A stretch of 64,000 nt of DNA from Patescibacteria group bacterium (GCA_016784145.1 JADHVF010000002.1:9102-73101); one strand, 5' to 3'; shown: positions 9,113 through 29,895, counted from the first letter of the stretch. Notes: generated by a model not told the origin, from the sequence alone. A program made the numbers and translations.

Positions 9113-9164
9113 GTGTTTTAGTTATAAAAGAGCCCTCTTTTTTGCTTAGGGCCCCTTTTTTTTT

Positions 9165-9383
9165 ACTTAGAGGCCTTGCCCCTAAGTAGAGTCACTTAGA
9201 GGCCTTGCCCCTAAGTAGAGTGCTAATCAGTAATCAGTAATTATTTACTTAGAGGCCTTGCCCCTAAGTAGAGTGCTAATCAGTAATCAGTAATTAATAT
9301 CTACTTAGAGGCCTTACCCCTAAGTAGAGTTACTTAGAGGCCTTGCCCCTAAGTAGAGTGCTAATCAGTAATCAGTAATTAAT
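9165..9383. repeat. Array of 5 copies of the 28-nt GC-rich hairpin element ACTTAGAGGCCTTGCCCCTAAGTAGAGT, three followed by a (CAGTAAT)n spacer
   Basis: The direct repeats are read from the sequence. Each copy is an imperfect inverted repeat (TACTTAGAGG / CCCCTAAGTA). It sits between convergent genes and overlaps the stop of the minus-strand CDS. Confidence 0.85.
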
Positions 9384-13151: not shown

Positions 13152-14012
13152 ATGTCATTGTATAAACATACTAGAAATTTATTTTATACTAATAAATTTA
13201 AACCCTTGCGCAGGCGAGGGCAAAATTTTTTAATTAATGAAAAAATAGTAGTTAAAATTATAAAACAGGCAGACATAACATCCAAAGATATTGTTTTAGA
13301 AATCGGAGCCGGTACAGGCATTTTAACAAGCAAAATAGCAGACCATGCGAAAAAAGTTATGGCAGTAGAAATTGATAAAAACTTAATTCAGATTCTTGAA
13401 TCAGAAATAAAAAATTACAACAATATAGAAGTTATTTCTAATAGTATTTTGGACGAGAAATGTTGGGAAGAGATAATTAAAAAACAAGGCAAACAATATA
13501 AAATTATAGCCAACTTGCCATATAATATTACTGGGTTTGTTTTAAAAAAAATATTACTAGAGCCAATCAAGCCAGAGATAATTATAGTAATGCTCCAAAA
13601 AGAGGTTGTAGAAAGAATAGTGGCCAATCCCCCCAAAATGTCGTTTTTATCTGTTTTTGTCCAGTTTTGGGCTGATGTTCAAATTATTGCGAATGTAGGT
13701 AGGAATAATTTTTATCCAAAACCAAGTATTGATTCAATTATAATCAAATTATGTCCTTATTGTGATAAACATTGGCAATTAAAAAGTACGCCAGTAGAAT
13801 TTTTTAAGATAGTTAGAGCGGGATTCACTTCTCCTCGTAAATATTTACTTAACAATTTATTTAAATATGGTATTATAAGTAAAGAGCAAGGAGTAGATTT
13901 GTTTAAAAAAATTAAAATAAATCCAAAGATTAGAGCTCAAGAATTAGCAGTTTCTAAATGGATTGAATTAACCAATATATGTCTAAAAAAAACACAACTA
14001 AAAGACAGTTAA
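13152..14012 (+). CDS. rsmA: 16S rRNA (adenine1518/1519-N6)-dimethyltransferase
   Basis: RRRGQNFLINEKIV...LEIGAGTGILT is the conserved KsgA/RsmA N-terminal block plus the SAM-binding motif. Confidence 0.9.
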   Translation: MSLYKHTRNLFYTNKFKPLRRRGQNFLINEKIVVKIIKQADITSKDIVLEIGAGTGILTSKIADHAKKVMAVEIDKNLIQILESEIKNYNNIEVISNSILDEKCWEEIIKKQGKQYKIIANLPYNITGFVLKKILLEPIKPEIIIVMLQKEVVERIVANPPKMSFLSVFVQFWADVQIIANVGRNNFYPKPSIDSIIIKLCPYCDKHWQLKSTPVEFFKIVRAGFTSPRKYLLNNLFKYGIISKEQGVDLFKKIKINPKIRAQELAVSKWIELTNICLKKTQLKDS

Positions 14013-14695
14013 TATTTTTAAGCATCTTAACAATGCTTTTTGTTTTATTGGCCTATGTTCAGATAAAGGGAACTATTTTTTCTCCGTCTACTTGGGTTGA
14101 CCAATCAGAAGAAGCACAAGTAAAAAATATTAAAACACAAGCAATTATTAATCAAGATACTGACAGTGATGGCTTGCTTGACTTTGATGAACAATATACT
14201 TACAATACCTCAATTTATTTAGCAGACACTGATAGTGATGGAGTCACTGATAAAGATGAAATTGATATTGGTACAGACCCCTTGGACGCAATGTCGTTTT
14301 TAGGGGTAGTTAAAGAGAATCAAGATAAGAACGAAGAGGATACAATCATAGACATTTTGCCAACAGAACAAGATCAGTTAATTCAAAAAATTACAAATCA
14401 ACAAATAAGAGAGTTTTTGATTGACTCAATTGGAATAAACAAGGATGTTGTGAAAATGTTTGATGACAAAACTTTAATAAACTTGTATAATGAAGCTAAA
14501 CAAGAAACAGGTATTGATTTAGAAAACATAAATCAAGCCAAGCCATTTAGTCAAGGAGCTTCGGAACCTTCTGATTTAACTATTCCAGAACTTAGGCAAA
14601 TTTTAATAAATCAAGGAGTTGATGAGCAGATGTTAAATAAATTAGATGACAATATTTTGGAGACAATGTTTTTACAAACTCTTTTGACCCCTTAA
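13979..14695 (+). CDS. Secreted protein with thrombospondin-type-3-like Ca-binding repeats (DTDSDG)
   Basis: It starts with a signal-anchor (MSKKNTTKRQLIFLSILTMLFVLLA). Repeats DTDSDGLLDFDEQ and DTDSDGVTDKDEIDIGTDPLD follow. It overlaps the rsmA 3' end by 34 nt; an alternative start at 14030 is possible. Confidence 0.5.
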   Translation: MSKKNTTKRQLIFLSILTMLFVLLAYVQIKGTIFSPSTWVDQSEEAQVKNIKTQAIINQDTDSDGLLDFDEQYTYNTSIYLADTDSDGVTDKDEIDIGTDPLDAMSFLGVVKENQDKNEEDTIIDILPTEQDQLIQKITNQQIREFLIDSIGINKDVVKMFDDKTLINLYNEAKQETGIDLENINQAKPFSQGASEPSDLTIPELRQILINQGVDEQMLNKLDDNILETMFLQTLLTP

Positions 14696-14709: not shown

Positions 14710-17700
14710 ATGAATTCTCAAATGAAAAAAATATTTTTAATAATATTAGTGATTGTTTTTTGTTTTACTTTGTTTGCACCAAGACAAGTATTGGCCTTAG
14801 GAGATGAATGGGCGACAATAGGGCATTTTTTTTCTAGTGTAGGAGAGTATGTTTGGAAGATTGGTGAAGCATTATGGGAAGAAAGTAAACATCAGTTTAC
14901 GGCGGTTGTGTTTAAGCAAGGATTAAATCTTTATTTAGGCGAGATGGCTAGACAAAGCGCAGAATATGTTGCCACGGGAGGCAAGGGTCAAAAACCAGCC
15001 TTTATAAGCGACCCTACTTATTGGTCTAAGATGGGAGATAATTTATTAGGAACACTTGTTAATGAGGTGGCCCAAGAAGGGTTGGGAGTAAAAAGTTTAT
15101 GCGACCCGATTGACCCTACTATTAGATTTAATATGCTGGTATCGGTTGATACAAAATACAAGGAACAGCAATTTAAGGAAAACGAAATGGACATCTGTCC
15201 ATTAAGTAGAATTAACGAAAGAGTTAAAGAGGCCTCTAGTAAGAAGCTTTTTGAATTTTCAGCAGGTGTAAAAGAAGGAAAACCAAAAAAATTTAAAACC
15301 GATATAAAAGTTGCTATTGTTAATGACACAACCATAAACAAAGCAGATGGGAATTTTGTTTGTGATAAAAGAGGAAAACTTGTCTGGGGAATGTTAAAAT
15401 GTGAATGTAAAGAAAATTGCACTTCATCAAATTGTGATAATACTTGTTTTTCTGTCGATGAGAGGAACAATTTTGGCAGATGGGTAAATGATGGGGCTCA
15501 AGATTTATTAAATATTATTGACAAATTAAGCAATATTCAAGATGAATTTGAAAAAATTATTAATGCTTATGAATGTGCTGTTCAAGACAAGGATGGCAAT
15601 CCAGGTTGGTGCACTAAAAAACTTGAAGAAGTAGAACAAATAAGAAAAGATAAACAAGCAGAAAGAAACGAAAAATGTCCAAACCAAGATGACCCAGAAT
15701 ATTGCGATAAACTACAGGATGAAATAAATAATCTTGTTGAAAAATTTCTTTACATTGATAAATGGTCTAAAAACTATATTAGCATTGACAAATCTTTAAG
15801 AATTAAGAATGTAATAAAAGATTTAAAAAAATTAATTGATGAAACTCCTGATCCTACATCAGGACTAAAAAAAGGAGTTTGGGGACTAAAAAAAGAAAAC
15901 AAGGGATGGGAAATAGATTCATCAAAAGATAATGAGAATTATCTTGGTTGGTGGACAACTTATCCAGCTAAATGTGCTAAAGAAAGTTCAGATGATTTTT
16001 ATGCCTCAGAACATTGTCCTACTCTTTCTGCGTTAGCTTTTGGTAACGATTCAAACGAACATTATCAAGATGTAATTACTTATTCTAAAAGAATGAATAC
16101 TTATGCTAAAAAAATAGCAGATTGGTATGCCACTTTAGAAGACATGATTACAGAGACACACAAGGCGCTTGAAGAAGAAGAAGACCTTCCAGAGACAGAC
16201 CCATTAGACGAGGTTCGTAGAGTTACATCTTCAGAAGGAAGTGATATTGGGGCAACCATTAAAATGAAATCAGATTTTTTTGATAAACAAGCCAAAGCCA
16301 TGGAAGAATCTAAGTTTTTTCAGAACTTGCAAGGCAGGATGAACGATGTTAGTACTAATATTTCTGGAATAACTAAAACACCATCAATATATATTGATGA
16401 ATCAACCAGGACAGCTATTAAAGAAGGTTCGGCCACTTATAAACAATATACTGGAGCAGCTTTGGCAGATGCTTTCAATATTTTTTCTAGCACTTTAATG
16501 AAAAAACTGATGGAAAGAATTTTTGAAGAAGGGTTTAATCCAACTGTTGAAGCAGATAGAACCAAGCCATTTTTAGATAAAGGAGAAGATGAACCACCAG
16601 TTGTTCCAGACCTTGAAGATATTAGAGATGATTTTTCAGATCTAAAATCAGCTCCAATGCGCAAGGGTGGAAAAATGAGCATTTATGACGAATTTGCTGT
16701 TTGTTTGGATGATCCTTCGTATGAATTGCCAACTAATTGTTTGATTGATAGTAATATGATTGAGGCAATTGAAGGCAAAATGACTATTGGGGAGGCCTTG
16801 GATGAAAATTTGCTTAATCCTGGTGCTAGTGTTGGTAGTCCAGGAGATACTAGTAGTTTATTTAGTTATGCTAATCTTAAAAAATTAAGAAGATATAGAA
16901 TTTTTCCTTTAGGCATGGAAATAGCGGCTGAAAAAATATATAATCAAACCATGGGTGACCAGGAATATAAATTAAGATCAATTGTTAATGGATTTAATGT
17001 AGAAAATTCTATTGGCACCTGTTCAACAATTGACTTAAATGGGAGTTTTGAAACAGGGGAAAGTGTGCCAGGTAATTGGTTTTTGAATGATAGTGACGGG
17101 ACAGGAACAAGAGAAAGTGTAGATAATGAATATTATCACGGTTCTTTTTCTTATAAAATAAATTCAACACATACAGCAAATGCTTATTATGGAATCGGCC
17201 ATGAGCCTTATGACATTGAGCCAAACACCCAGTACACTGTTTCGGTAATGGTAAAAGCAGAGGCAATAAATACGGGCAGTTTTAATCTTTCTCTCCATTG
17301 TCACTCTGATTCTGGCGGAAACTTTAATTATACGACTGATGCTGGTGACACAAGCATTTCTTCTGCTAGCTCATCATGGGAACAGCTTTATAGAACTTTT
17401 ACAACTCACAATGATGCAACTGATTGCACCATGCTACTTATATTTAATAATGGTGGCACGGGCACTGTTTATGTTGACCAGGTAAATTTTGTAAAAGGCA
17501 ATAATATTCCTAATGATTACTCATGGGAATCTGCCTCGCCTTTTTGTCATTTAGTTGACCCTGACTGGGTATTAAAGGCCTCTACTTATCAGTGTGATTT
17601 AATGGGCTATTCAGCTATTCCATTAAAAAATAGCAACCAAAGACAAGAAACTTGTGTTGACTTAAAGGATTGCATACACGAAGACCAGGATGGCAATTGT

Positions 17701-20700
17701 GATACTTGGGCATATTGTACTAGAGAGAAAAATGTTTGGCAGTTTAATGGAACTGCTTGTGACAAACAATATGCTTCTTGTGAAACATATGTTCGTTTGT
17801 CAGATAAAAAACAGGCCTTTTATGTTAGCAATACAATAGATTTTGAAACTTGTACGGAAAATGACAATGGTTGTAATTGGTATTGTTCTGTTTGGGACAA
17901 TGATATTGGGTCTGATGGAAAATGGGCTTGCGTAGAGCCAGGTAGTTCATCTTATCCAGATGGCAAGAGTGATTATTCTCAATATGATGATGACAATGCA
18001 ATATTTTTTAATTTAAAAGCAGAAGATTGTAAAATTGAAGAACAGGGTTGTAATGAATACATTAAATTAGGAGAAAATATAAATTTAATTCCAAATAGTG
18101 GGTTTGAACTTGACAAGAATGCTGATGATATTGCTGATGGATGGATAGAAAAGTGGGAAGGAGACGAAGTTCTTACTGAGGATGCAGCTTTTGATGGATT
18201 ATTTGGTTATGAGTTTGTCCATTCTAATGGAGATGATATGGGGGATTATACAGGAGCATGGCAAAGAGTTTCTGTATTACCAGGGCAAAAATATACTATT
18301 TCTGCTAAAATAAAAATAATCACTCCTGTCACGGGGACTGGTTCGACTGCCACTGTTAATTATTATTGGGATGAAGACGGAGACAATTATGACATTGGCA
18401 ATAAAGGAGAGACAATAATTATACTTGATTACCTTGATGAATGGCAAGAACATTCTCAAACAGTAGTTGCTCCTGATAACATGAATTATGTCTGGATTGC
18501 TCCTATTATGTATGGCAATGGCAAGGTTTATTTTGACAATATTCAACTAGAATATGGAGCATTGTCTTCGGCTTATAAAGAGTATGGTTCAGGAGTTAAG
18601 GAGTATTTTAAGACAATTCCCAAGCAAAGACAATGGGTAGAAGATGGTAATGGCAATTGGGATTGGGAATGGAAAACATGCAGTGTTTATGATGAGGCAG
18701 ATAATTTGGATTGTGATGGCTATGCCCAGCAATGCGATGCCAAAGATATTGGTTGCGAGATTTACACTAATATAAGTAATAATGTTTCTTTCTCGGCCGT
18801 AAAAAGAGGAGAAGATGAATGTGCTCCTGAGTGTGTTGGGTATGAAACATTTAGGCAAATACCAACCAATTTTGATATTAATGTTGATTGGAAAAGCTTT
18901 ATCCCATCAACGGCCCAGGGATGTTATGTGCCAGGGTGTGAAGAGTTTACTAATTTAGATACACTGAATCAGGGCGGAGAAGGGACGGAATATTATTCTT
19001 ATTTAAGACAATGTGTAAAAACAGATGAACAAGCAAGGGCAATTATTGATAGTAATTCAGACGAGATAATGCCACCAGATTCTGATACTTGCGGGTATTT
19101 TTATACTTGGATTGGGTCTGAAACAAGTGGCTTTCAGTTAAAAAAATATTATCTAAAAATTGACACTGACAATGGTCCGGAAAAAGTTTCAACCTCTCCT
19201 CCAAGTTCTTGGGGAAATTGTTGGAACGAAGACCATGCAGCCACTAATCCTTATTGCAAGCAGTTTTATAATGAGGCAGGGCAAATTTATTATAGATTAT
19301 ATAAAAATACCATTACTTGTTCGGAAGAATGTTATCCATTCAGACGAAGTATTAATCAAGCCATTTACATGGCTATGCCGTCACAAGGAGAAATGTGTAG
19401 TTCTCAAAACAATGGTTGCAAGGAATACAAAGGGCCTTTAGCAGGTGATATTAATTCTGTTTTTTCAGATGATTTTACAGCTGGTACGGGGCAATGGACT
19501 ACTGGTGACCTTTCTTCAGAAACAGATAATTTTTCCGGTTATTCTTTAAAAAATAATGGAGCCGGAGAACTAAAGCGTTCAGTGGCTGGCTTGACTCAAA
19601 AAGATAAAATTTATTTTGTATCTTTTTGGATTAAAACAGCATCAAGTGATCCCATAGAGGTTTATTTTACTTCAACTGATAGAATAGAGCAAAATATTAG
19701 TTTAGTTAATGAGTGGCAGAATATGAGGTTTGGGCCATTCTATTTTTCAACTACTCCATCTAATGATGAAAAACTTAATATTTTCGCAACTAGTGATTTT
19801 TATATTGACAATGTTATTTTAGAGCAAATCGATGATAATATTTATTTGATAAATGATTCATGGTCAACTCAGGGTTCTTGTGATATTGATTATCAGGGAA
19901 ATTATAGCCAGGGATATATGATTGGTTGTGCTAAATATGTTGATACTAATAATGATGAGCATTATTTCAAACAATTTAGTAAAATGTGCCCTGAACAAGC
20001 AGTTGGTTGTGCGGGTTATATTAATACTCAAAATTATTCATATCCATTTGAATGGCAATTTAATCAAGCAGGAGCAGATAATGATGAAATAACAATTTTA
20101 GCAGACAAGACAGAGTATTATGTTGTTGAAAAAGAAAACTATTGTCATGAAAACAATAAAGGGTGTGAAAGATTAGGCCTGCCAGAAATCGAAGATGATG
20201 GGTCTATTAGTATGTGGTCAGATGTTTTTATTAAAAATAATCCTGATAACTATAAATCCAAGAGCATGGTTTTATGTGATGTTGACGGGGTTGGGTGTGA
20301 AGCATATTCTGATAATTATTATTTCAAAGACCCAATCAAGCAAGCAAAACTATGTGAATACAAAACCAAAACAATTAATGGAAATAATCAATCAGGCTGG
20401 TTTAAAAAAGACACAGACCAAGCTTGTTATTACGAAAATACGGGACCATACATAATAGATGACCTTACTTATGGCATTTATTTTCCAGGTCAAGAAAATT
20501 ATGATAATTATGTTGGTATTTGTCCAAAGAAACAAGTTGGGTGTACTGAATTTGTTGACCCTGGTTGGGGTGGCGGAACAAAGAATTTAATAAATAATAG
20601 TGACTTTGCTAACGAAGATGTTGGATATGATGACGATAATCATCCAGATGGTTGGTTTGATAGTTTTAATAATAATCCAAGTTGGCAAGTTGAAGTTGTT

Positions 20701-23700
20701 GATCAAGTATCAACTGGTATTTGTGGGGTTGGTAGTAATGAAAACAATGTTTGTTATTCTAACACAGCTTGCGAATCTTGGACTTGTGATCTTTTTGGAA
20801 CAGAGTGCTTTGGTACTGGGCCTTGCGAAGGTAGTAATTCATATTGCAGTCATGATAATAGTTTTTGTACTGATGATAGTGGCTGTAATACAACTACATC
20901 CACGGGAACTTGTACAAATGTCCTTGTTTGTGGAGGCAATGCTTCTTTTGAATGTAGCACTGGGGCAGATTGTTCTTCAGGTGATAATAGTTGTAATATA
21001 CCAAGTGATACTCCAACAGAGTGGGCATGTGAATATGATAACAGTGCTTGTGACCCAAACAACAATCAATGCCCTACTGTTAATGATAGTTGTTATTATG
21101 ATGATTGTTATTATACAGGTACAGCTTGTAATAGTAATTCTGATTGTGATGGTAATATTTCTCAGTCATGTGATGCTTCTACATTTGTCGCAACAGGTCA
21201 TTGTAAATTTGCCGTAGAGGAAAGTTGTATTTCAGACGATGATTGTGTTGGGAAGGGTTCTCAAGAATGTGTTTTTGGAACTTGTTCACAGGGTTATAAT
21301 AATTGTTATAACGATTCAGATAATTTTAGTTTTGTGCAATCATGTACCGGAGGAACAACTGGTTGTTATGGGGGAGATGCTTGTACATGTCCTGTTAATA
21401 GTGTTTGTATTCGAGATTTTGGCTCTTGTGATCCTTTTGGAACAGATACTTGTGCTACAGATGTACCATGTCAGAGAGTTGGCACTTGTAATACAAATTC
21501 AAACATAGAATGTTTTGAAGGCGGAGATAATAGATGTACTTATGATTACGGGAATGTTTGCGGGTTTGATGTTTGTATTTTAAATGGAGAATATAATGGC
21601 TATTGTGACACTTCATCACCATCACCTTGTGAATCCACTACTAATAATTTTTGTGATGCCCAGACGGGCACTTGTACTCAAGTACAAGATTCTTCTTGTA
21701 ATTTTTCACATTCTGACAGCGTTTCAGTTGAATTGCCTTCGGGAATGATAAATGCATATCATGTTTATACTAATAGTCCTGTTTCTACTGAAGCCGGCTT
21801 CATAGGAGATATTGGTAGTCCGACTGGAGGAGAGTTTTCTTATAATGGTCCGGCCTTTTATAGTATTTATGCTTTTGTTAGGAAAGGCACGGTGAAGTTC
21901 GGTGATTTATCAAAACCAGACGAAGAAATAGTTTCCATAGATAGTACTGAAAGCAATGACCAATGGATTAAAAAAAGTGTTTTTGTGAGTTATCCGTCTT
22001 CTACACGCGTTTATTTTGAACCAGATGTAAATAATGAGGTAGATGCTTACGTCACTGGCTTGGTTTTGTCTCCTTCTTCTTTTGCAGAATATTATTACAT
22101 TGATAATAATAAATTAGATAAAGCTACTTCTGTTTCATTAAAAAAAGGAAATATTCTCTTACAAAATTCAAGCGATATAAATATGGATGGGGAAATTAAT
22201 TCATACTATAATTCTTTTGCAACTTATCAGAAGTCGTCAGAACAAACTCCTCCAGGAGCTTTGGTTGATGCGATTAGTTGTTCGCCAGAGCCAGTAATTG
22301 ATTGTGAAGAAGAAATTAATCAGTCAACAGATTATTGCAAATATTGTTTGCCAAACAATCAGCTTGGAAATGATACCAATCTAATTTTAAAAGTTGATAG
22401 GGATAGAATTTGTGGAGAGTGGCTTACTTGTATTAGCTCTAATCAAGAATGGGATGCTAATTTAGGGGCATATAGGGATGTTTGTCAGTTCATGGGAAGA
22501 TGCAATCAATTGATAAGCTCGGGAGAGGCAACAGAATGTGTCAGATTTGTAGAGCCAGAGGAAGTTGTTTTAACAGAGGATGTTTATAAAAATAGGGATA
22601 TTTCTTTCTCGGGCATGGATTATTCAGGACATTCATTACATAATGTTTATCCCTTGGAAAAATTATTTCTCACGGGAACAGACACAGATGGTTATGAACT
22701 AACCCACAAAGACAAAGATGGTATAGAAGATGGTATAGATGGCAATGATTCAACTTTAGATAAAACATGCAGATTATTTCCTGAAAAGGACTCTCCTTTC
22801 AAAAATTGGGAAAAAGAGGACAAAAATGTCTTATATCAAGGAGTGAATTCATGTAACGATAATTCAAGTTCGGGAGATTATTCTGATTGTCAGTGTTCAT
22901 ATTTAAAAGTTAAATATGGTGGCATGAATCTTTATTATAATTACGCTGATTCAACTTTTGGCACTGCACCTTCAAAGGCCTGTATTAGCGGGAACAACAA
23001 GGGGGGAACATGCGCTAGTGATACTGATTGTGACAGCATTGCAGGGTCTTGTGTTAATAGAGGAGAGGGTCAAAAAGTGGTTGGATTAAGAGATTATTGT
23101 ATTGAATTAGATGATACAAAGGAAGGTGCTGGAGATTTAGGGGCTTGTGTTACTTGGTGGCCTGGTGCTGGCATGGGTGACCCAGATGTTTTCAATCAGG
23201 TTTCTTCAGCCGGATATGAAGGAGAGACAGAATATTTTTGCATAGATGCTTCTGACAGATGGGAATATAGAGGCGAGATTTATGAAGAAACACGTTATGA
23301 AGATGGGTATGGTTGTGCTAATAATCCTAGACCTTCCTCTTCAAATTGTGACAGTAATTACACTCTTAGTGAAACAAAGGGAGAGAATTGGGATGATGAC
23401 CAGTGGTGTGGTTGGCAAGGATCGCATAGTCAGTTTTGGAGATATGTGCATTGTACTAGGAATGGCAATGGTGATTCTGGTTGGTTTTCAGATAATAATG
23501 GTTCTGCTATAACATATCCTGTTCTTGATTATGGATCCACCCCTGTTCCTGAAGAAGTTGTAGAACATAGGTGTAACAAGATTATTGCTATCCCTGCTGG
23601 GAATGATGCTAAAGCTTTTACAAATGTTATTTATAATGAGTCAGCAGTGGGTGGTATTAATCATGGAGATGGTTGTGAGTTTTATGGCAACTTAGGATCC

Positions 23701-24453
23701 CTTGCCCTTGATTCACAAATAATTCTACCACATGCTGATTGGGCTGGAAATGATTGTAATATAAATATTTCTTACACAATTCCAGGAACATTGCTCGCTA
23801 GATATCCTATCACTTTGGCTGGCACAATTATTCATAATGGCACCAGTATTTTAAAGCAATTATTTGCTGTGTCAGGAAATGAATATCATTGGAATGGAAG
23901 TGCTTATATTGAACAAGCTGGTACATCATGGGATAATACAGAGACGGCAACAAATACAATCAATGCTCCCAAGGTTGCTTCCATGTCAGAAATAGAGGGA
24001 GAAATTACCATTGGTGATTCTAGTGATGCTGATGTTGCACGCACGGCAGCTTATCCGGCTACATTAAAGTTTTATGCTTGGGCCAATGAAAACCAAATGC
24101 CAGTCAGGGAAATCGAAATTGACTGGCTAGGCACAGGGTCTGAGATGGGGATTGAACAACATAATGTAACAGCTAAAAATCATAAAATTACTTGCGATAA
24201 TACTAATTTCGGAGATTCATCAGATGGGTGTATTGACGAACCATATGTATTTAACCGTATTTATACTTGTGTTGGTTCTGGTAGTTTGGGGTGGAATTCT
24301 AGTTTTTGCGGGGGGCTGACTAATGCTTGTTGTTTCAAACCAAGGGTAAGGATAAAAGATAATTGGGGCTGGTGTACAAATGGAGTTTTTGATTGTTCAG
24401 ACACACAAGGGTGGGTTGATTATAACGGAAAAATAGTAATATACGCTCAGTAA
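14710..24453 (+). CDS. Giant (3247 aa) secreted Cys-rich surface protein with at least 3-4 CBM4_9-like carbohydrate-binding jelly-roll modules
   Basis: It is a single uninterrupted 9.7-kb ORF with an N-terminal signal peptide (KKIFLIILVIVFCFTLFAPRQVLA). CBM4_9-like segments lie around aa 770-930, 1130-1290 and 1590-1740 (…GNWF…YTVSVMVKA…VYVDQVNFVKG; IPNSGFELD…KYTISAKIKI…VYFDNIQLEY; …FYIDNVILEQ). A dense Cys-rich repeat region spans roughly aa 2000-2350. Confidence 0.7.
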   Translation: MNSQMKKIFLIILVIVFCFTLFAPRQVLALGDEWATIGHFFSSVGEYVWKIGEALWEESKHQFTAVVFKQGLNLYLGEMARQSAEYVATGGKGQKPAFISDPTYWSKMGDNLLGTLVNEVAQEGLGVKSLCDPIDPTIRFNMLVSVDTKYKEQQFKENEMDICPLSRINERVKEASSKKLFEFSAGVKEGKPKKFKTDIKVAIVNDTTINKADGNFVCDKRGKLVWGMLKCECKENCTSSNCDNTCFSVDERNNFGRWVNDGAQDLLNIIDKLSNIQDEFEKIINAYECAVQDKDGNPGWCTKKLEEVEQIRKDKQAERNEKCPNQDDPEYCDKLQDEINNLVEKFLYIDKWSKNYISIDKSLRIKNVIKDLKKLIDETPDPTSGLKKGVWGLKKENKGWEIDSSKDNENYLGWWTTYPAKCAKESSDDFYASEHCPTLSALAFGNDSNEHYQDVITYSKRMNTYAKKIADWYATLEDMITETHKALEEEEDLPETDPLDEVRRVTSSEGSDIGATIKMKSDFFDKQAKAMEESKFFQNLQGRMNDVSTNISGITKTPSIYIDESTRTAIKEGSATYKQYTGAALADAFNIFSSTLMKKLMERIFEEGFNPTVEADRTKPFLDKGEDEPPVVPDLEDIRDDFSDLKSAPMRKGGKMSIYDEFAVCLDDPSYELPTNCLIDSNMIEAIEGKMTIGEALDENLLNPGASVGSPGDTSSLFSYANLKKLRRYRIFPLGMEIAAEKIYNQTMGDQEYKLRSIVNGFNVENSIGTCSTIDLNGSFETGESVPGNWFLNDSDGTGTRESVDNEYYHGSFSYKINSTHTANAYYGIGHEPYDIEPNTQYTVSVMVKAEAINTGSFNLSLHCHSDSGGNFNYTTDAGDTSISSASSSWEQLYRTFTTHNDATDCTMLLIFNNGGTGTVYVDQVNFVKGNNIPNDYSWESASPFCHLVDPDWVLKASTYQCDLMGYSAIPLKNSNQRQETCVDLKDCIHEDQDGNCDTWAYCTREKNVWQFNGTACDKQYASCETYVRLSDKKQAFYVSNTIDFETCTENDNGCNWYCSVWDNDIGSDGKWACVEPGSSSYPDGKSDYSQYDDDNAIFFNLKAEDCKIEEQGCNEYIKLGENINLIPNSGFELDKNADDIADGWIEKWEGDEVLTEDAAFDGLFGYEFVHSNGDDMGDYTGAWQRVSVLPGQKYTISAKIKIITPVTGTGSTATVNYYWDEDGDNYDIGNKGETIIILDYLDEWQEHSQTVVAPDNMNYVWIAPIMYGNGKVYFDNIQLEYGALSSAYKEYGSGVKEYFKTIPKQRQWVEDGNGNWDWEWKTCSVYDEADNLDCDGYAQQCDAKDIGCEIYTNISNNVSFSAVKRGEDECAPECVGYETFRQIPTNFDINVDWKSFIPSTAQGCYVPGCEEFTNLDTLNQGGEGTEYYSYLRQCVKTDEQARAIIDSNSDEIMPPDSDTCGYFYTWIGSETSGFQLKKYYLKIDTDNGPEKVSTSPPSSWGNCWNEDHAATNPYCKQFYNEAGQIYYRLYKNTITCSEECYPFRRSINQAIYMAMPSQGEMCSSQNNGCKEYKGPLAGDINSVFSDDFTAGTGQWTTGDLSSETDNFSGYSLKNNGAGELKRSVAGLTQKDKIYFVSFWIKTASSDPIEVYFTSTDRIEQNISLVNEWQNMRFGPFYFSTTPSNDEKLNIFATSDFYIDNVILEQIDDNIYLINDSWSTQGSCDIDYQGNYSQGYMIGCAKYVDTNNDEHYFKQFSKMCPEQAVGCAGYINTQNYSYPFEWQFNQAGADNDEITILADKTEYYVVEKENYCHENNKGCERLGLPEIEDDGSISMWSDVFIKNNPDNYKSKSMVLCDVDGVGCEAYSDNYYFKDPIKQAKLCEYKTKTINGNNQSGWFKKDTDQACYYENTGPYIIDDLTYGIYFPGQENYDNYVGICPKKQVGCTEFVDPGWGGGTKNLINNSDFANEDVGYDDDNHPDGWFDSFNNNPSWQVEVVDQVSTGICGVGSNENNVCYSNTACESWTCDLFGTECFGTGPCEGSNSYCSHDNSFCTDDSGCNTTTSTGTCTNVLVCGGNASFECSTGADCSSGDNSCNIPSDTPTEWACEYDNSACDPNNNQCPTVNDSCYYDDCYYTGTACNSNSDCDGNISQSCDASTFVATGHCKFAVEESCISDDDCVGKGSQECVFGTCSQGYNNCYNDSDNFSFVQSCTGGTTGCYGGDACTCPVNSVCIRDFGSCDPFGTDTCATDVPCQRVGTCNTNSNIECFEGGDNRCTYDYGNVCGFDVCILNGEYNGYCDTSSPSPCESTTNNFCDAQTGTCTQVQDSSCNFSHSDSVSVELPSGMINAYHVYTNSPVSTEAGFIGDIGSPTGGEFSYNGPAFYSIYAFVRKGTVKFGDLSKPDEEIVSIDSTESNDQWIKKSVFVSYPSSTRVYFEPDVNNEVDAYVTGLVLSPSSFAEYYYIDNNKLDKATSVSLKKGNILLQNSSDINMDGEINSYYNSFATYQKSSEQTPPGALVDAISCSPEPVIDCEEEINQSTDYCKYCLPNNQLGNDTNLILKVDRDRICGEWLTCISSNQEWDANLGAYRDVCQFMGRCNQLISSGEATECVRFVEPEEVVLTEDVYKNRDISFSGMDYSGHSLHNVYPLEKLFLTGTDTDGYELTHKDKDGIEDGIDGNDSTLDKTCRLFPEKDSPFKNWEKEDKNVLYQGVNSCNDNSSSGDYSDCQCSYLKVKYGGMNLYYNYADSTFGTAPSKACISGNNKGGTCASDTDCDSIAGSCVNRGEGQKVVGLRDYCIELDDTKEGAGDLGACVTWWPGAGMGDPDVFNQVSSAGYEGETEYFCIDASDRWEYRGEIYEETRYEDGYGCANNPRPSSSNCDSNYTLSETKGENWDDDQWCGWQGSHSQFWRYVHCTRNGNGDSGWFSDNNGSAITYPVLDYGSTPVPEEVVEHRCNKIIAIPAGNDAKAFTNVIYNESAVGGINHGDGCEFYGNLGSLALDSQIILPHADWAGNDCNINISYTIPGTLLARYPITLAGTIIHNGTSILKQLFAVSGNEYHWNGSAYIEQAGTSWDNTETATNTINAPKVASMSEIEGEITIGDSSDADVARTAAYPATLKFYAWANENQMPVREIEIDWLGTGSEMGIEQHNVTAKNHKITCDNTNFGDSSDGCIDEPYVFNRIYTCVGSGSLGWNSSFCGGLTNACCFKPRVRIKDNWGWCTNGVFDCSDTQGWVDYNGKIVIYAQ

Positions 24454-24536
24454 ACAAGGGCAGGCCCCTTTTAAATGGGTCTGACCTTTTAGCATAATTC
24501 AAACCATTTTTAGTTAATTGTATTTGTGTTTATTTA

Positions 24537-27500
24537 ATGTTAAATAGATTAAAAAAAATTAATTTTTCTCTTAAAAAATTAATACCAATAAACAGCATTG
24601 GTGTGAAAAGATTTTTATTATTATTTGTTTTTGTTGGTATTGCTATTTTTGTTCCTAAAATAGTATTTGCTTTTAGTATTATAGATAGCATAATTGCTCC
24701 TCCCTTAATGGCTTTGATTAATTTTTTGGGAAGATTAACTTCGTTTTTTATTTGGCTCTTAGTTCAAGTGGCTCAGTATAATGATTTTATAAATTCACCA
24801 GCCGTATCAAAAGGGTGGATTTTAATGAGAGACATATTTAATATGTTTTTTGTTATTATCTTGTTAGTAATTGCTTTTGCGACGGTTCTTAAAATAGAAA
24901 CATATTCATACAAGCGATTAATGCCAGTATTTATTGTTTCAGCTGTTTTGATTAATTTTTCCAAGTTGATTTGCGGAGTGATAATTGATATTTCTCAGGT
25001 TTTAATGCTTACATTTATATCTGCTATTCAGTCAGCTGCTACAGCTGATTTTGTTGAAATTTTTGGGTTGACTAAAATGTTGGAATTAAGAGATAACATA
25101 GAATCAGGGGTGGTTATTTCGGGAGGAGAAATGTTTGGGGCTTTGCTTTTAGGACTTGTTATGGTTTTGGTTGCTCTTGGAGTTATAATGACAATGACAC
25201 TTTTGTTAGTAGCCAGGATTGTTATGATTTGGTTTTATGTCCTGCTTTCGCCAATGGCTTTTATGGCAACTATTTTACCGGGGACAAAAAGCTATGCTAG
25301 TCAATGGTGGACTGATTTTATAAAACAAGTAATCATTGGCCCTGTTTTGGCTTTTTTTCTATGGATATCTTTTTCAGTTGTCTCGACAGGGGGGTCTTCT
25401 GGAATGATTGATTCATCTAGCGGGAATTCAGCTACCATAGGCGTAACCGGAGAGCCGAGTTTTATATTTAACTTTTTAATTGGCATTGCGATGTTGATCG
25501 GCTCTTTAATGATGGCTCAAAAAATGGGAGTAGCTGGTGGAAAAATGGTTGGGGGAGCAGTTAGCAAAATGAAAGGCATGGCCATTGGCAAAGCAAAAGG
25601 AGTAGCCAAGAGAGCAGCCAAGAGAGTAGGAGCCCCTTTAAAGAAAGTTGGCAAGGGCTTGGCAGGAGCAGCAGTTAAAGCACCTCTTAGGGGATTAAAG
25701 GCTGGAGTAAAATTTGGGGGCAAAAAATTACAAAAAACAGGAAAAGTCGGAGAATGGGTTGGTAAGGGAATTGAAAAGACAGCAACTCCGATTGAATCAA
25801 TTAGACAACTAAAAGGTAGTGCAGTTCAAGGATTGCAAAAAAGAAAACAAAGTCGTTTAGAAAGACTTAGAAAAGGGAAAGGAACGATAATGGATAAAGC
25901 AGCCCAGGCATTAAGTGAAGAATATGATAAATCAGGAGGGAGAGACACAACAATTAACCAGGAAATTAGGAGGGATAAACTTGAAAAAAGACAAAAACAA
26001 GCTCAATCAAAACATGATGATGATGTAATTGTAGGAGCAGAAAACGACGAAGCATATGCTCTTGTGGCAGCAGAAAGAGGATTATTAAAAACAACCAAAG
26101 TTGAAAAATTACCGACTAAAGACAATAAAAGATTGGAAGAATTAAAACAAGGTGATGCCACAGACACTTTAACCACAGAGGAGCAAGAAGAGTTTGAAGA
26201 ATTAACAACCAAGAATGAGGATTTAAAGAAAAAAGCTAAAACAACAACCAAGAACAATGAACGAGTTGAGCGCACGGTGGCTAATGCTAGAAACAAATTT
26301 GCATCAGATTCTATTATAGGGAAGTCCTTTGATGACCATTTAAAAAAGAAAGGTGATGCTAATTTAGCTTATAATACATTTTATAAAGATAATCCAGGGC
26401 AGTTAACTAAAGATATTAAATCAGGAGATTTTGGGGTAGCCCAATTAATGAAATTAGATAAAGATACAACAAAGGACCTTGGTTCAAGTGATGTGGGGCA
26501 GAATATTTTATCTGAAATAAAAACAGAGGATTTTAATAAATTTGCTAAATCTACGGACATAAAAGTTCAGGATAAATTTGAAGCACTTTTTGGAGACATA
26601 AAGCCGGAAAAAATTAAAGAAAAAGATAAACAAAAACTGATTGATGCTGGTAGGGCTGATTTAGCTTTTGTGGATGACCCAGAAACAGAAGAACAAAAAA
26701 GTAATAACAAAAACATGGTTAAAAAATTGGAAATGGAAGAGAATAGAGATGTTTTACTTAAACAGTCAGACATGGCTTTAAAGAATGATGTGGTGGCTGA
26801 GTTGGTCGTAAAGACAGCAAATCTAGAAGATATTCAAAAAATGTCACCGAAAAGAAAGGAAAATCTTTTGGAAGAAAAAATGCCTGCTATAATGAAGAAT
26901 TATCAAAAAAAGGAAAGCGATCAAGGATTAGAAGACCCTGAAAAAGAAGATTATAAGAAGATTCAAACAACTTATATTAAAGCCAAGAAAGGAAAAGATA
27001 TTAGCAAGGTCTTTGAAGACAAGGATGGCAAGTTTGATGAAAGCAAGTGTGCTAATCTTTCTAAATGGATAAAAAATGGTACAATTAAATCAGGTGATTT
27101 GGGAGATTTAGATATTGATAGGGAAAATATTAATGAAAAGCAAAAAGATGAAGTATTGAGTCAAATATCTCAAGGAATGACAGCTAGCGATGTTATGAAA
27201 TTATATGGTAAAAATCAAGGATTGGCACAAAAATTAACCAATAAAATTCAAGCACAAGCTTCAACAGGAGATAAAGAAGCACTAGAAAAGATAGAAGTTC
27301 TCTCCAACTCAGAATTTTTTCAAAGACAAATATCTACAACAACTAAACAAAAAACAAAAGAAACAAAAATACAGGGCAAGAAAGTAGATAAATCAAGTGT
27401 CCGAAAGATTGAAACAATAACTACTCAAGAAATTGAAGAAAGAAAAGAAATGATAACCAAAAAATATAATAACCTTGAAGAACCAGTAGATGCTATAATG

Positions 27501-28127
27501 ATAGTAGAAGACCATACTAAACAAGGTGGCGAATTAGCGAAAACAATTAGTTCTGCTTCTTTAGAATCATTTAAAAATTTACAAGCATCAAAGAATGCAG
27601 GGAAAGAAATGATTGCTAAAATGGACAAAAATGAATTAAATGAGTTTGCTCAGGAGCTAATCAAGCATAAAGGCGGACAAGAAAAACTGGCAAAGATTTT
27701 TAATTTAAGAGATATGTTCCCTGTCGGCCAAGACTTGTCTGAAAAAGGAAAGATGACAGTTAATAACAAAGAATATGATTTATCTAATTCAAGGGAAAGA
27801 GAAGAGGTTAATCAACTCAATGCTCAAAAAGCAGTTGATGTTATAAAACAAGCACCAACCATTGCTGTTAATTTAGCAGGAGTAGAAGGCGCAAAAGGAT
27901 TAACAGATTTGCAAGGAGTGAGCAAAGAAATAGCAGAAGCGATAATACAAGCCATTGCCAACCAAGCAAACAAAGGGGATGACCAAGCTCAACAACTCAT
28001 TCCCAACCTTAAAAATACTGCATGGATAAAAGAAATTTTAGAAAAACAAAAGAAAGAAGCAGGACCACTAGAAGAAGGGCAATCAGAGACAGAAGGGACA
28101 ACAGAAGGGACAACAGAAACAGAATAA
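24537..28127 (+). CDS. VirB6/TrbL-like polytopic membrane protein with an ~850-aa K/E/D-rich low-complexity tail
   Basis: The N-terminal ~330 aa contain about 6-7 hydrophobic helices with TrbL/VirB6-like organisation. Next comes a Gly/Lys-rich linker (GKAKGVAKRAAKRVGAPLKK). The tail is long, charged and probably coiled/disordered. It lies in the same operon as the VirB4 ATPase. Confidence 0.5.
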   Translation: MLNRLKKINFSLKKLIPINSIGVKRFLLLFVFVGIAIFVPKIVFAFSIIDSIIAPPLMALINFLGRLTSFFIWLLVQVAQYNDFINSPAVSKGWILMRDIFNMFFVIILLVIAFATVLKIETYSYKRLMPVFIVSAVLINFSKLICGVIIDISQVLMLTFISAIQSAATADFVEIFGLTKMLELRDNIESGVVISGGEMFGALLLGLVMVLVALGVIMTMTLLLVARIVMIWFYVLLSPMAFMATILPGTKSYASQWWTDFIKQVIIGPVLAFFLWISFSVVSTGGSSGMIDSSSGNSATIGVTGEPSFIFNFLIGIAMLIGSLMMAQKMGVAGGKMVGGAVSKMKGMAIGKAKGVAKRAAKRVGAPLKKVGKGLAGAAVKAPLRGLKAGVKFGGKKLQKTGKVGEWVGKGIEKTATPIESIRQLKGSAVQGLQKRKQSRLERLRKGKGTIMDKAAQALSEEYDKSGGRDTTINQEIRRDKLEKRQKQAQSKHDDDVIVGAENDEAYALVAAERGLLKTTKVEKLPTKDNKRLEELKQGDATDTLTTEEQEEFEELTTKNEDLKKKAKTTTKNNERVERTVANARNKFASDSIIGKSFDDHLKKKGDANLAYNTFYKDNPGQLTKDIKSGDFGVAQLMKLDKDTTKDLGSSDVGQNILSEIKTEDFNKFAKSTDIKVQDKFEALFGDIKPEKIKEKDKQKLIDAGRADLAFVDDPETEEQKSNNKNMVKKLEMEENRDVLLKQSDMALKNDVVAELVVKTANLEDIQKMSPKRKENLLEEKMPAIMKNYQKKESDQGLEDPEKEDYKKIQTTYIKAKKGKDISKVFEDKDGKFDESKCANLSKWIKNGTIKSGDLGDLDIDRENINEKQKDEVLSQISQGMTASDVMKLYGKNQGLAQKLTNKIQAQASTGDKEALEKIEVLSNSEFFQRQISTTTKQKTKETKIQGKKVDKSSVRKIETITTQEIEERKEMITKKYNNLEEPVDAIMIVEDHTKQGGELAKTISSASLESFKNLQASKNAGKEMIAKMDKNELNEFAQELIKHKGGQEKLAKIFNLRDMFPVGQDLSEKGKMTVNNKEYDLSNSREREEVNQLNAQKAVDVIKQAPTIAVNLAGVEGAKGLTDLQGVSKEIAEAIIQAIANQANKGDDQAQQLIPNLKNTAWIKEILEKQKKEAGPLEEGQSETEGTTEGTTETE

Positions 28128-28168: not shown

Positions 28169-29455
28169 ATGGAATTTAAGGATTTACCAGATTGGGTAAA
28201 AGACAATTTATTAAGTGACCAAACATTGGCAGTTAATAAAAAGATTATAAAAGACTTTGAATTAACAAATGAACAAAAGTCAATTGTTTTTGATGCCTTG
28301 CGAAAAATTATATTAAAACAATCAAATATAGATGAATTAACAGTCGTTTTGCAGGGAATGGGAGTTGGCATAGATAAAGCAAACAAACTTATTATAGAAG
28401 TTATTAAGCAAAGATTACTGCCTTTAAAAGAATATTTATTAATTGATTTTCGTCCATCTATTACTAAATTAGGGGGAAAGATTCTTAAAGAACAATCAAG
28501 CCAGTTTGTGCCAGATAAAGAAATTTCTTTAGAAAAAACAGCTCAACAGATTATAGATGAACTTAAAATATCTTTTGAAAGAGATGTTATGGCAACTAGG
28601 TTTAGTAATATTGTTGTTTCATTTTTAAAAGAAGTGAGAAGCGAGATTGAAACAAAAATTGTTTTAAAAAGAGACCCAAAGATAGGAGGAATGGGGATTG
28701 AGGACGAGATGGTTGATAAAATAATACAGGCCTTGAAAAAGAAGCATCAATCTCCTAAAATAATCAAAAATACAAAGGTTAAAGATTTGACAGAAGAATT
28801 AAAATTAGCTCAAGAACCAATTGATATTCCTGGCTCAATTCCAAAACCTCAGCCAAAACCTGACTTAGGGGCAAGGCCTCTAAGTAAAGACATGAGTCAA
28901 GAAAAGCAAGTATTAACACCAAAACCTTATCCTGTTTCTCAACCAAAACCTGACTTAGGGGCAAGGCCTCTAAGTAAAGACATGAGTCAAGAAAAGCAAG
29001 TATTAACACCAAAACCTTATCCTGTTTCTCAGCCAAAACCTGACTTAGGGGCAAGGCCTCTAAGTAAACCGTTAGTACATCAAACACCAAGGCCGGTTAA
29101 GGATTTGTCTGGGCCAGTTGAAATTAGGTCAAGAACATTGAGTCCTATTGATGAATTAAGAACATTTTCTTTGGTTGATTGGCGACGATTAGGGAAAACA
29201 GCTGATGCTGTTACCAGAATCAAAGACAAAATAAATTTGTTAGAAGAAGAATCATTGCTAAAAAAGGCAGAAGGAATTAAGGCATGGAAAGAATCAACCA
29301 TTAACAAATTATATTTAAAAATAGGGGAGCAAGCGATTAATTCAGGGTCATCAATTAGGGATGTTATTTTAAGCAGGCAAAGCAATAAAGAACAAACCTT
29401 AACAGAAGAAGAGTTTAATGCTGTGGTTGAATTAAATCAATCTTTGAGATTTTAA
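28169..29455 (+). CDS. Hypothetical protein with a 3x tandem 30-aa repeat (PKPDLGARPLSKDMSQEKQVLTPKPYPVSQ)
   Basis: 428-aa ORF in the co-directional cluster. The internal 90-nt tandem repeat embeds the GC-hairpin element (see repeat 28851-29070). Confidence 0.5.
   Translation: MEFKDLPDWVKDNLLSDQTLAVNKKIIKDFELTNEQKSIVFDALRKIILKQSNIDELTVVLQGMGVGIDKANKLIIEVIKQRLLPLKEYLLIDFRPSITKLGGKILKEQSSQFVPDKEISLEKTAQQIIDELKISFERDVMATRFSNIVVSFLKEVRSEIETKIVLKRDPKIGGMGIEDEMVDKIIQALKKKHQSPKIIKNTKVKDLTEELKLAQEPIDIPGSIPKPQPKPDLGARPLSKDMSQEKQVLTPKPYPVSQPKPDLGARPLSKDMSQEKQVLTPKPYPVSQPKPDLGARPLSKPLVHQTPRPVKDLSGPVEIRSRTLSPIDELRTFSLVDWRRLGKTADAVTRIKDKINLLEEESLLKKAEGIKAWKESTINKLYLKIGEQAINSGSSIRDVILSRQSNKEQTLTEEEFNAVVELNQSLRF
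28851..29070. repeat. 2.4 copies of a 90-nt in-frame tandem repeat, each containing ACTTAGGGGCAAGGCCTCTAAGT (reverse complement of the intergenic hairpin element at 9165-9383)
   Basis: Exact 23-nt match read from the sequence at 28864, 28954 and 29044. The period is 90 nt, a multiple of 3. Confidence 0.85.
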
Positions 29456-29466: not shown

Positions 29467-29895
29467 ATGCAATTTTTAGTTCCACAATTTATTGATGTTG
29501 AACCAAAAATCATTGGGCCAATTTCGCCTCGTCAGTTCGTTGTTTTCATTGTTACTTTATTATTATGTGTGTTAGCATATAAGTTAGCTGATTTTGCTTT
29601 ATTCACAATTGAAGCAATTATTTTTGTGGCAGTAGGGGGGTCATTTATGTTTCTTAAGGTTAATGGCCAACCATTGCATTATTTTTTACTTAATATTGGG
29701 AATAGTTTCAAAAAGCCAAACTTAAGGGTGTGGAAAAAACAAACCAAGATGCCAGTTGAAATAAAAGTAAAAGAAAAGAAAAAAGACAAAGGACCAATTG
29801 TTGTCAGAAAGTCACTTCCTTCAACTCGGCTTTCACAAATTTCATTAATGGTTGATACAGGAGGCAAATACAATGAAGAGGATTTTGAAGAATAA
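29467..29895 (+). CDS. PrgI/VirB3-like small membrane protein (type IV secretion component)
   Basis: 142 aa. MQFLVPQFIDVEPKIIGPISPRQFVVF… is followed by two hydrophobic helices, typical of the PrgI family. It sits immediately upstream of the VirB4-family ATPase, as VirB3 does relative to VirB4. Confidence 0.5.
   Translation: MQFLVPQFIDVEPKIIGPISPRQFVVFIVTLLLCVLAYKLADFALFTIEAIIFVAVGGSFMFLKVNGQPLHYFLLNIGNSFKKPNLRVWKKQTKMPVEIKVKEKKKDKGPIVVRKSLPSTRLSQISLMVDTGGKYNEEDFEE

Follow-up and report, generated by a model that had tools for sequence, protein, structure and literature searches.

A family of giant cysteine-rich proteins with carbohydrate-binding-type modules encoded next to type IV secretion genes in Patescibacteria

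Results

The giant open reading frame

The stretch of DNA analysed here, the window, consists of 64,000 nt from a Patescibacteria group bacterium (GCA_016784145.1, JADHVF010000002.1:9102-73101), and all positions are counted from its first nucleotide. It carries a giant open reading frame (ORF) which covers 15.2% of the window and lies between a gene for a Ca-binding TSP3-repeat protein and the genes of a type IV secretion system (T4SS). An earlier note made from the sequence alone, referred to below as the original prediction, had described the product as a secreted, cysteine-rich giant protein with several modules resembling carbohydrate-binding modules (CBMs). The gene and its product comprise the following parts.

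14710 to 24453, plus strand: giant ORF, 9744 nt, ATG start, 3247 codons (3247 aa), no internal stop
14710 to 14799, plus strand: signal peptide, aa 1-30, ending in RQVLA and followed by LG
14800 to 16974, plus strand: N-terminal region, conserved at aa 31-200 and 501-755, split by variable region 1 (VR1); predicted mainly as long helices
17035 to 17487, plus strand: CBM_4_9 module 1, aa 776-926, in VR2
17551 to 20562, plus strand: conserved core scaffold, aa 948-1951, all-beta, with most of the invariant cysteines
18088 to 18564, plus strand: jelly-roll module 2, aa 1127-1285, conserved
19453 to 19830, plus strand: jelly-roll module 3, aa 1582-1707, conserved
20680 to 21729, plus strand: Cys-dense insert, aa 1991-2340, 46 Cys (13.1%), inside VR3
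22090 to 24450, plus strand: C-terminal conserved blocks, aa 2461-2850 and 3051-3247, split by VR4

Translation and an identical NCBI entry, 'carbohydrate binding domain-containing protein [Patescibacteria group bacterium]' from a 222.7-kb contig, establish the gene as the single intact 9.7-kb ORF of 3247 aa that had been predicted to make up 15% of the window. A pseudogene, a fusion artefact or an assembly artefact can be dismissed because the protein is collinear with its homologues from end to end; the frame is uninterrupted as well, and the pseudogene alternative attached to the original prediction is thus not borne out. The mature protein has a mass of ~358 kDa and a pI of 4.3, and 143 Cys are distributed across the whole protein. 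As predicted, it starts with a signal peptide: the hydrophobic segment at residues 5-30 is of the cleavable type, and nearly all homologues open with a signal-peptide-like segment of the same kind, mostly with AQA-type ends. This is the sole hydrophobic segment of the giant protein, in which neither a second transmembrane-like segment, a C-terminal transmembrane segment nor an LPXTG(-like) motif was found.

No sequence repeats were detected at the DNA level inside the gene, nor does the window contain a template/variable repeat pair of the kind found in diversity-generating retroelements. A BLAST comparison of the protein with itself revealed no internal repeat beyond a short C-x5-GC motif described below. 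Searches of the giant protein against Pfam, PDB and PHROG gave no matches apart from CBM_4_9; PHROGs returned none, and comparison of the entire protein with PDB sequences yielded nothing useful.

Three CBM-type jelly-roll modules

At least three segments had been predicted to carry a CBM4_9 signature, each ending in a VY[VF]D[NQ][VI]-type strand. This proved correct for Pfam and profile matches as well as for the terminal strands, which read VYVDQV (920), VYFDNI (1273) and FYIDNV (1697). Module 1 is the strongest of the three at the level of sequence, with matches at aa 776-908 to CBM_4_9 (PF02018, 39.1 bits, cut-off 25.9) and to PF22637 (33.3 bits, cut-off 27) and an NCBIfam GTA_spike_fiber domain. 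It is missing at the corresponding position in most homologues. Its assignment rests on the above-threshold Pfam match; the support from predicted folds covers modules 2 and 3.

The two conserved modules match CBM_4_9 below the Pfam cut-off, module 2 at aa 1127-1259 (14.9 bits, E = 0.035) and module 3 at aa 1582-1671 (21.7 bits, E = 2.8e-4). A profile of the core built from 52 family sequences and compared with PDB chains retrieved CBM22, CBM70, CBM16 and CBM4 structures with E values from 2.6e-9 to 4.5e-5, located exactly at modules 2 and 3. Profile positions 170-313 (module 2) matched CBM70 4d0q at 7.6e-7, CBM16 at 7e-6 and CBM4 1gui at 4.5e-5, and positions 594-734 (module 3) matched CBM22 4xup at 2.6e-9. 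AlphaFold2 (AF2) models were built from 12 sequences each for the core (aa 941-1990, model m2e2d9c26d3e8, predicted local distance difference test score (pLDDT) 49) and for the N-terminal region (model m95a83e43dd74, pLDDT 51). In the core model aa 1165-1285 (pLDDT 57-80, a beta-sandwich within module 2) and aa 1581-1707 (pLDDT 71-89, module 3) are all-beta, and a Foldseek search with this model retrieved CBM16 2zey (TM score 0.74), the porphyran-binding CBM 8xmz (0.78) and the hyaluronan-binding CBM70 4d0q (0.70).

The fold check proposed for the CBM segments, run for modules 2 and 3, thus returned jelly rolls or beta-sandwiches with TM scores of 0.70-0.78, and an objection to the CBM assignment on grounds of fold fails for these two modules because AF2 with Foldseek and the family profile both show CBM-type jelly rolls. 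By sequence profile and predicted fold, modules 2 and 3 can be considered established homologues of CBM4/9/16/22-type carbohydrate-binding modules, and the giant protein has a third, inserted one. Each jelly-roll segment is preceded by a C-x5-GC-x-EY motif. In the form C-x5-GC-x-[EY] this hairpin motif occurs in 8 copies in the core, typically directly ahead of a jelly roll.

Conserved scaffold and variable regions

The blocks that are collinear among relatives correspond to aa 1-210, ~500-770, 945-1980, 2450-2850 and 3060-3247, and 43 of the 72 invariant columns in the 52-sequence alignment are Cys. The family core is made up of a helical N-terminal domain, an all-beta, Cys-rich scaffold that includes jelly rolls 2 and 3, and two C-terminal blocks. 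Between these blocks lie four variable regions, whose lengths were measured between conserved anchor columns in 52 homologues.

VR1, aa 201-500: 300 aa here, family median 8
VR2, aa 756-947: 192 aa here, family median 26
VR3, aa 1952-2460: 509 aa with 46 Cys here, family median 92
VR4, aa 2851-3050: 200 aa here, family range 200-1059

The alignment demonstrates that three to four fixed sites differ enormously in length and content among lineages, and within the set of 52 neither VR1 nor VR3 is longer than in the protein encoded in the window. Because they are located in VR2 and VR3, the strongest CBM (aa 776-926) and the Cys-dense 350 aa are, as judged from the alignment, lineage-specific insertions at variable sites and do not belong to the conserved core. 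The inserts are, if anything, specificity modules; they are not what defines the giant protein.

The Cys-dense insert had been likened to tandem EGF or disulfide-knot modules. While the Cys density is real, this label found no counterpart among known profiles: region 1986-2345 gave no Pfam match at E ≤ 1 and no NCBIfam match to EGF, Cys-knot, the Myxococcus Cys-rich repeat or any other Cys-repeat profile. We also considered that the insert might split a fourth jelly roll, starting with NLINNSDF...DGW at 1958 and ending with ...AYVTGLVL at 2445; neither Pfam on the spliced sequence nor local BLAST and HMM comparisons with the CBMs of the family supported this. The last ~110 aa of the protein bear a DWGDG...H.Y...DNWGWC motif that looks PKD-like by eye. 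A PKD match was obtained in one of 47 members (weak, E = 0.018) and none in the window protein, and this assignment was dropped.

Profiles of the two C-terminal blocks and of the N-terminal region, compared with PDB sequences, gave no match. The usable parts of the AF2 models are the two jelly rolls, a coiled coil in VR1 and, of the N-terminal region, a small C-terminal portion. A fold search with the N-terminal model yielded no significant match; the best were ClyA-type pore-forming-toxin folds at E values of 0.7-6, which we do not take as evidence. When compared with the helical bundles of VirB5/TraC, the N-terminal region is predicted helical (pLDDT 51) and has no fold match below E = 0.7 and no Pfam match. 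Long matches of the core model with low TM scores to Elapor1, reelin, Cry and binary-toxin chains are uninterpretable because the model is poor.

Size and distribution of the family

Sequence similarity places the giant protein in a large family whose members have 2000-3600 aa. A word-indexed protein search found 13 relatives only (2290-3520 aa, 25-45% identity), and further searches of this type, including one with the 52-sequence alignment, reached no more than 14 relatives and a single weak match. Scanning one genome per GTDB species revealed relatives in at least 474 species genomes, and when the N-terminal profile was run exhaustively with HMMER, 1073 representatives of clusters at 50% identity were recovered at E ≤ 1e-30. 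Of the 150 that scored best, nearly all are 2000-3600 aa long; the shorter ones are likely fragments. Among 15 diverse full-length homologues CBM_4_9 was the sole Pfam family detected, in 10 of them.

The comparisons of loci below refer to the best 80 species-level loci from the genome scan. Their titled records comprise Falkow-, Komeili-, Buchanan-, Uhr- and Kerfeldbacteria, which we take to belong to GTDB class ABY1, and other metagenome-assembled genomes (MAGs) of the Parcubacteria group. Many MAG records (third party annotation assemblies CAZ..., CAY...; loci L005-L084) are titled 'uncultured Gammaproteobacteria bacterium', which is almost certainly mislabelled taxonomy.

The gene run around the giant gene

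From LeuRS (leucyl-tRNA synthetase) through a gene for a PD40-repeat protein, 13 genes follow one another on the plus strand, -34 to 83 nt apart. LeuRS, KsgA, the TSP3 gene, the giant gene and the T4SS genes look like one transcription unit. The genes adjoining the giant gene are the following.

13979 to 14695, plus strand: TSP3 partner, 238 aa, with a membrane anchor (residues 11-29), TSP3-type Ca-binding repeats and a helical C-terminal part
24454 to 24536, plus strand: intergenic gap, 83 nt, with a weak hairpin and no terminator-like site
24537 to 28127, plus strand: VirB6-like gene, 1196 aa, 7 transmembrane segments (residues 26-321) and a hydrophilic K/E-rich tail of ~870 aa
28169 to 29455, plus strand: T4SS-locus protein, 428 aa, function not assigned, with three 90-nt tandem repeats; homologues at the same position in other loci
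29467 to 29895, plus strand: PrgI/VirB3-like
29909 to 30574, plus strand: TrsD
30588 to 32504, plus strand: VirB4 ATPase
32513 to 36219, plus strand: rest of the run, a 179-aa single-transmembrane protein, a 146-aa membrane protein, a 467-aa VirB2-type pilin-like protein and a 430-aa PD40 protein, with gaps of 6-16 nt

The gene directly upstream, which ends 14 nt before the giant gene, does encode a Ca-binding TSP3-repeat protein as had been proposed: the match to PF18884 (TSP3_bac, E = 3.2e-5) lies slightly under the cut-off (24.1 bits against 25), and DTDSDG and DxDxDG motifs are visible. The first 34 nt of its ORF (13979-14012) are shared with the end of the KsgA gene. Downstream, the distance of 83 bp to the VirB6-like gene was confirmed, and a weak hairpin (-18.2 kcal/mol, z = -0.95) is all that the gap contains.

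The 1196-aa protein has no VirB6, TrbL or PrgH match in Pfam or NCBIfam and is called VirB6-like by its topology alone. An 'extended VirB6' architecture, in which a polytopic part is joined to a large hydrophilic extension, has been described (PMC12857230). The PrgI, TrsD and VirB4 genes are identified by matches to PF12666, NF041427 and PF19044 across the trio. Directly 3′ of VirB4, the 179-aa protein (32513-33052) has one N-terminal transmembrane segment and a soluble domain of ~150 aa, the topology expected of a VirB8/PrgL-like component; it has no profile match. In the pilin-like protein (33517-34920) a VirB2-type N-terminus (signal peptide and two transmembrane segments; weak PF18895/PF04956 matches) is joined to an extracellular domain of ~330 aa with 17 Cys. 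A kinship of the giant protein with this Cys-rich domain was rejected, since the two share no sequence similarity. The next gene past the PD40 gene is RecG, on the opposite strand.

The window has a G+C content of ~30% and housekeeping genes on both sides of the run (LeuRS, KsgA, RecG, NDK, EF-G, S7/S12, IleRS and TGT). Because of these flanks it represents chromosomal DNA of a Patescibacterium, and a reading of the T4SS as a mobile element is ruled out.

Conservation of gene order

Exact protein look-up showed the order LeuRS-KsgA-TSP3-giant-(VirB6-like)-...-PrgI-TraC/TrsD-like-VirB4 to recur in four contigs, even at 26% identity. Among the best loci the order KsgA-TSP3-giant-VirB6-like-PrgI-TrsD-VirB4 is kept down to ~25% identity. 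Neighbours were counted by iterative hidden Markov model (HMM) searches of all ORFs over the species-level loci, and tblastn gave similar numbers.

TSP3-like gene, at most 400 nt upstream of the giant gene: 59 of 64 loci
KsgA, at most 3 kb upstream of the giant gene: 50 of 59 loci
VirB6-like gene with 7 transmembrane segments, at most 2.5 kb downstream of the giant gene: 44 of 52 loci
PrgI, TrsD or VirB4, downstream in loci with at least 9 kb available: 23 of 26 loci

The comparison with related genomes called for by the original prediction is therefore strongly positive, with TSP3-giant-VirB6-like-PrgI-TrsD-VirB4 present in most of the 80 loci.

Some loci show additional genes. In L001 (JADHVU010000001.1, 25286-28781; homologue P0005) the VirB4 gene encodes 1303 aa with Intein_splicing and LAGLIDADG_3 domains, i.e. 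an intein-containing VirB4, and a PDDEXK_3 gene stands between the giant and VirB6-like genes. The same interval in L002 (18287-23453; homologue P0013) is occupied by a gene for a TrpRS/TyrRS-class tRNA synthetase and three small ORFs; the gene of the Cys-rich giant protein in this locus has a DsbA/thioredoxin gene a few kb upstream. The loci L073, L078 and L050 encode giant proteins of ~3630 aa and have the TSP3-giant pair without T4SS genes within 4-9 kb; in L073 and L078 a VanW/PG_binding_4 gene is found shortly upstream of the pair.

Other features of the window

A palindrome of ~25 nt, ACTTAGRGGCCTTGCCCCTAAGT, is clustered in the intergenic regions 9164-9381 and 38556-38765, which bracket the block from a LysM/CHAP gene to RecG containing the giant gene and the T4SS. 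It also occurs within the gene of the 428-aa protein (28848-29068), where the three 90-nt tandem repeats are 98-100% identical and encode PKPDLGARPLSKDMSQEKQVLTPKPYPVSQ. Long tandem arrays of the heptamers TGATTAT/TGATTAC are present in the intergenic regions 45057-45188 and 48252-48467, adjoining the IF3 and S7/S12 genes, and shorter AATCAGT runs follow the palindromic elements. Two glycoside hydrolase family 57 (GH57) genes (362 and 659 aa; 4148-7212) share 57 nt at 91% identity (5117-5173 and 6190-6246) and adjoin a starch/glycogen synthase gene; this is a small glycogen-metabolism cluster with tandem paralogues.

Discussion

T4SSs are widespread in Patescibacteria, where they are chromosomal and often located near ksgA, and near recG in class ABY1 (PMC12102498). 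They resemble the monoderm MPF_FATA class and mostly lack a relaxase, and the same survey states that 'no adhesins, such as PrgB, were detected' (PMC12102498). In a Saccharibacterium, the sole genetically tractable species, the T4SS is essential for epibiotic growth; its substrate and the contact with the host are left open in the papers concerned (PMC10633639, PMC11665869).

We favour the reading, to which we would give about an even chance, that the giant protein is a Sec-exported, disulfide-stapled surface adhesin or host-contact module of the monoderm-type chromosomal T4SS encoded downstream. Once the signal peptide is removed the protein would have no anchor of its own, and it might be tethered through its conserved N- and C-terminal domains to the membrane-anchored, Ca-binding TSP3 partner and/or to components of the T4SS or its pilin. 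The scaffold, rich in disulfides, would be rigid and extended. The jelly-roll lectin modules and the lineage-specific inserts, here CBM module 1 and the 350-aa Cys-dense insert, are putative binders of glycans on the surface of a host or prey. The resulting stable cell-cell contact could be what the T4SS needs, a role of PrgB-like adhesins in Gram-positive conjugation. Conserved termini would suit docking and hypervariable insertion sites would suit host specificity. The giant gene heads the T4SS run and its obligate neighbour encodes a Ca-binding, membrane-anchored protein, a plausible tether; in favour of coupling, the genes of the run are spaced by 6-83 nt and nothing resembling a terminator is called in the 83-nt gap. 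The original prediction of an adhesin or host-glycan-binding protein tied to the T4SS thus still provides the best reading, with a secreted, Cys-rich protein, three CBM-type jelly rolls and the synteny on its side.

A number of points weigh against it. Its function is wholly one that we infer, and ~90% of the giant protein has no detectable relative of known function. CBM-type jelly rolls elsewhere also serve non-glycan ligands, and two of the three segments here are below Pfam's threshold. The rigid, extended rod shape of the scaffold we likewise infer, from AF2 models with mean pLDDT values of 49 and 51. The titled records of the best 80 loci include no Saccharibacterium, although many records are labelled merely 'Patescibacteria group bacterium' or implausibly, and for this reason the transposon sequencing (Tn-seq) data on essentiality from Saccharibacterium do not transfer directly. 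KsgA, a housekeeping gene, is as syntenic with the giant gene as the T4SS, and a general collinearity of the genomes may account for part of the adjacency. Six loci show neither a VirB6-like gene nor any other gene of the T4SS in the 4-9 kb of downstream sequence available. The Uhrbacteria chromosome L073 (OY970357.1) has the order SMC-VanW-TSP3-giant-NusA-YidC...GroEL with no T4SS within 9 kb. Given the count of 59 of 64 and the loci without an adjacent T4SS, the invariant unit is the TSP3-giant pair, and the link to the T4SS, though strong, has exceptions. Functional coupling cannot be proved from synteny alone because KsgA is equally conserved and some lineages lack an adjacent T4SS. Of the coupling to the secretion apparatus originally proposed, the conserved gene order has thus held up, but as proof of coupling it falls short in view of KsgA and of exceptions such as L073.

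An alternative is that the giant protein and its TSP3 partner form a surface or envelope module (an adhesin, a coat or an S-layer-like fibre) independent of the T4SS, the gene order being that of an inherited LysM/CHAP-LeuRS-KsgA-TSP3-giant-T4SS-RecG block. We regard this as possible, if on the whole doubtful. The tightest link is indeed TSP3-giant and not giant-T4SS, the functionally unrelated KsgA and LeuRS are about as syntenic, the pair is kept next to VanW, SMC and NusA where the T4SS is not adjacent (L073, L078, L050), and large Cys-rich extracellular proteins without a T4SS link are known from another Candidate Phyla Radiation (CPR) lineage (PMC4736985). On the other hand, the VirB6-like gene remains adjacent, on the same strand and at a short distance down to ~25% protein identity, and in L020, L059 and L080 a VirB6-like or other T4SS gene follows the giant gene although KsgA and LeuRS are not nearby; the short upstream stretch of L004 likewise shows no KsgA. 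A survey of T4SSs that found no adhesin also leaves a functional gap which the giant protein would fill.

A closer association, in which the giant protein is an integral extracellular part of the T4SS such as a stalk spanning the cell wall or the intercellular space, or a VirB5-like pilus-tip complex in an epibiont-host conduit, appears unlikely. It would agree with the first place of the gene in the T4SS run, with N- and C-terminal domains that are conserved around a variable middle, and with the long helices predicted for the N-terminal region (pLDDT 51). Patescibacteria T4SSs have VirB2-like pilins, here one with a Cys-rich domain, and the reviews consulted name no VirB5-like tip protein for them. 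However, no fold matches the N-terminal model significantly (those of ClyA type come closest, E = 0.7), the protein has no sequence similarity to T4SS components in Pfam or NCBIfam nor to the Cys-rich domain of the pilin-like protein, and in some lineages the gene lies away from any T4SS. Least convincing, and in our opinion very unlikely, is a secreted effector, that is an enzyme or toxin attacking polysaccharides or cell walls, targeted by its CBMs and either set free or delivered to the host cell. CBM4/9/16/22 modules are normally found together with glycoside hydrolases, a gene for a LysM/CHAP peptidoglycan hydrolase is conserved a few kb upstream, and giant proteins beside secretion systems in predatory Omnitrophota have been tied to cell-wall degradation (bioRxiv 10.1101/2023.11.21.568195). 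Against this, no catalytic Pfam domain was found in the giant protein or in 15 diverse homologues, PDB sequence matches are only to CBMs, and the Sec signal peptide speaks against direct translocation from the cytoplasm by the T4SS. The variability is moreover internal and the C-terminus (~200 aa) conserved across the family, unlike in polymorphic toxins; for these reasons, and since no toxin domain matches, an Rhs/CDI-like toxin was rejected.

The boldest reading would make the giant protein and its TSP3 partner a previously unrecognised extracellular core part of the ABY1/Parcubacteria-type T4SS, a disulfide-locked, Ca-dependent bridge or tip of ~360 kDa in which swappable lectin and Cys-rich inserts determine the choice of host and which forms part of a conduit for the exchange of macromolecules between these auxotrophic, ultrasmall bacteria and the host. 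We think this rather unlikely. A giant lectin-bearing family heading the T4SS run in hundreds of species offers a testable candidate for host recognition in a large uncultured branch of the phylum, and more than 1000 sequence clusters are now defined for a family that is ~90% unannotated. Should the coupling prove not to be functional, what remains is a conserved and major surface protein of these organisms, together with its Ca-binding anchor partner. That the lineages concerned offer no experimental handle and that the structural models are weak tempers its interest for CPR symbiosis and T4SS diversity.

Comparison with known systems

PrgB, the adhesin of the MPF_FATA system of pCF10, is ~2.5 times smaller than the giant protein and consists of adhesin and Ig-like domains. 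Both are large extracellular proteins with a Sec signal, encoded in the T4SS cluster of a monoderm-type system and with a proposed role in contact. The giant protein differs in being Cys-rich and in having lectin-type jelly rolls, and because it has no homology to the adhesin or Ig-like domains of PrgB (Pfam detects CBM_4_9 only) and no LPXTG sortase signal, it is not a member of the PrgB family. Compared with CBM4, CBM9, CBM16 and CBM22 (PF02018), the likeness consists of three segments of ~130-160 aa by sequence profile, two of them also by predicted fold, whereas the modules of the giant protein have no recognisable glycoside hydrolase attached and are set in a Cys-rich scaffold.

The downstream genes correspond to the T4SS described for Patescibacteria in PrgI/VirB3, TrsD, VirB4, the VirB6-like protein, the VirB2-like pilin and the chromosomal place near ksgA/recG (PMC10633639, PMC12102498). 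The giant protein and its TSP3 partner are mentioned neither as components nor as neighbours in the text or in supplementary files of these papers. Compared by description only, the giant proteins of Omnitrophota (bioRxiv 10.1101/2023.11.21.568195) are also very large, lie beside conserved secretion/pilus genes and occur in ultrasmall host-dependent bacteria; they belong to another phylum, are much larger and have genes resembling those of type II secretion systems and type IV pili as neighbours instead of a VirB4-type T4SS. The large Cys-rich extracellular proteins of Peribacteria (PMC4736985), again compared by description only, share with the giant protein the size class, a signal peptide, several percent Cys, a proposed role in attachment and an origin within the CPR/Patescibacteria. 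Theirs form a multi-gene cluster of ~1650-aa proteins with no T4SS link, while the family described here is single-copy per locus, has 2000-3600 aa and is placed between a TSP3 gene and a T4SS. A giant adhesin beside a secretion system is as such known; the family and its scaffold, the partnership with a TSP3 anchor and the systematic place ahead of the Patescibacteria T4SS appear not to have been described before.

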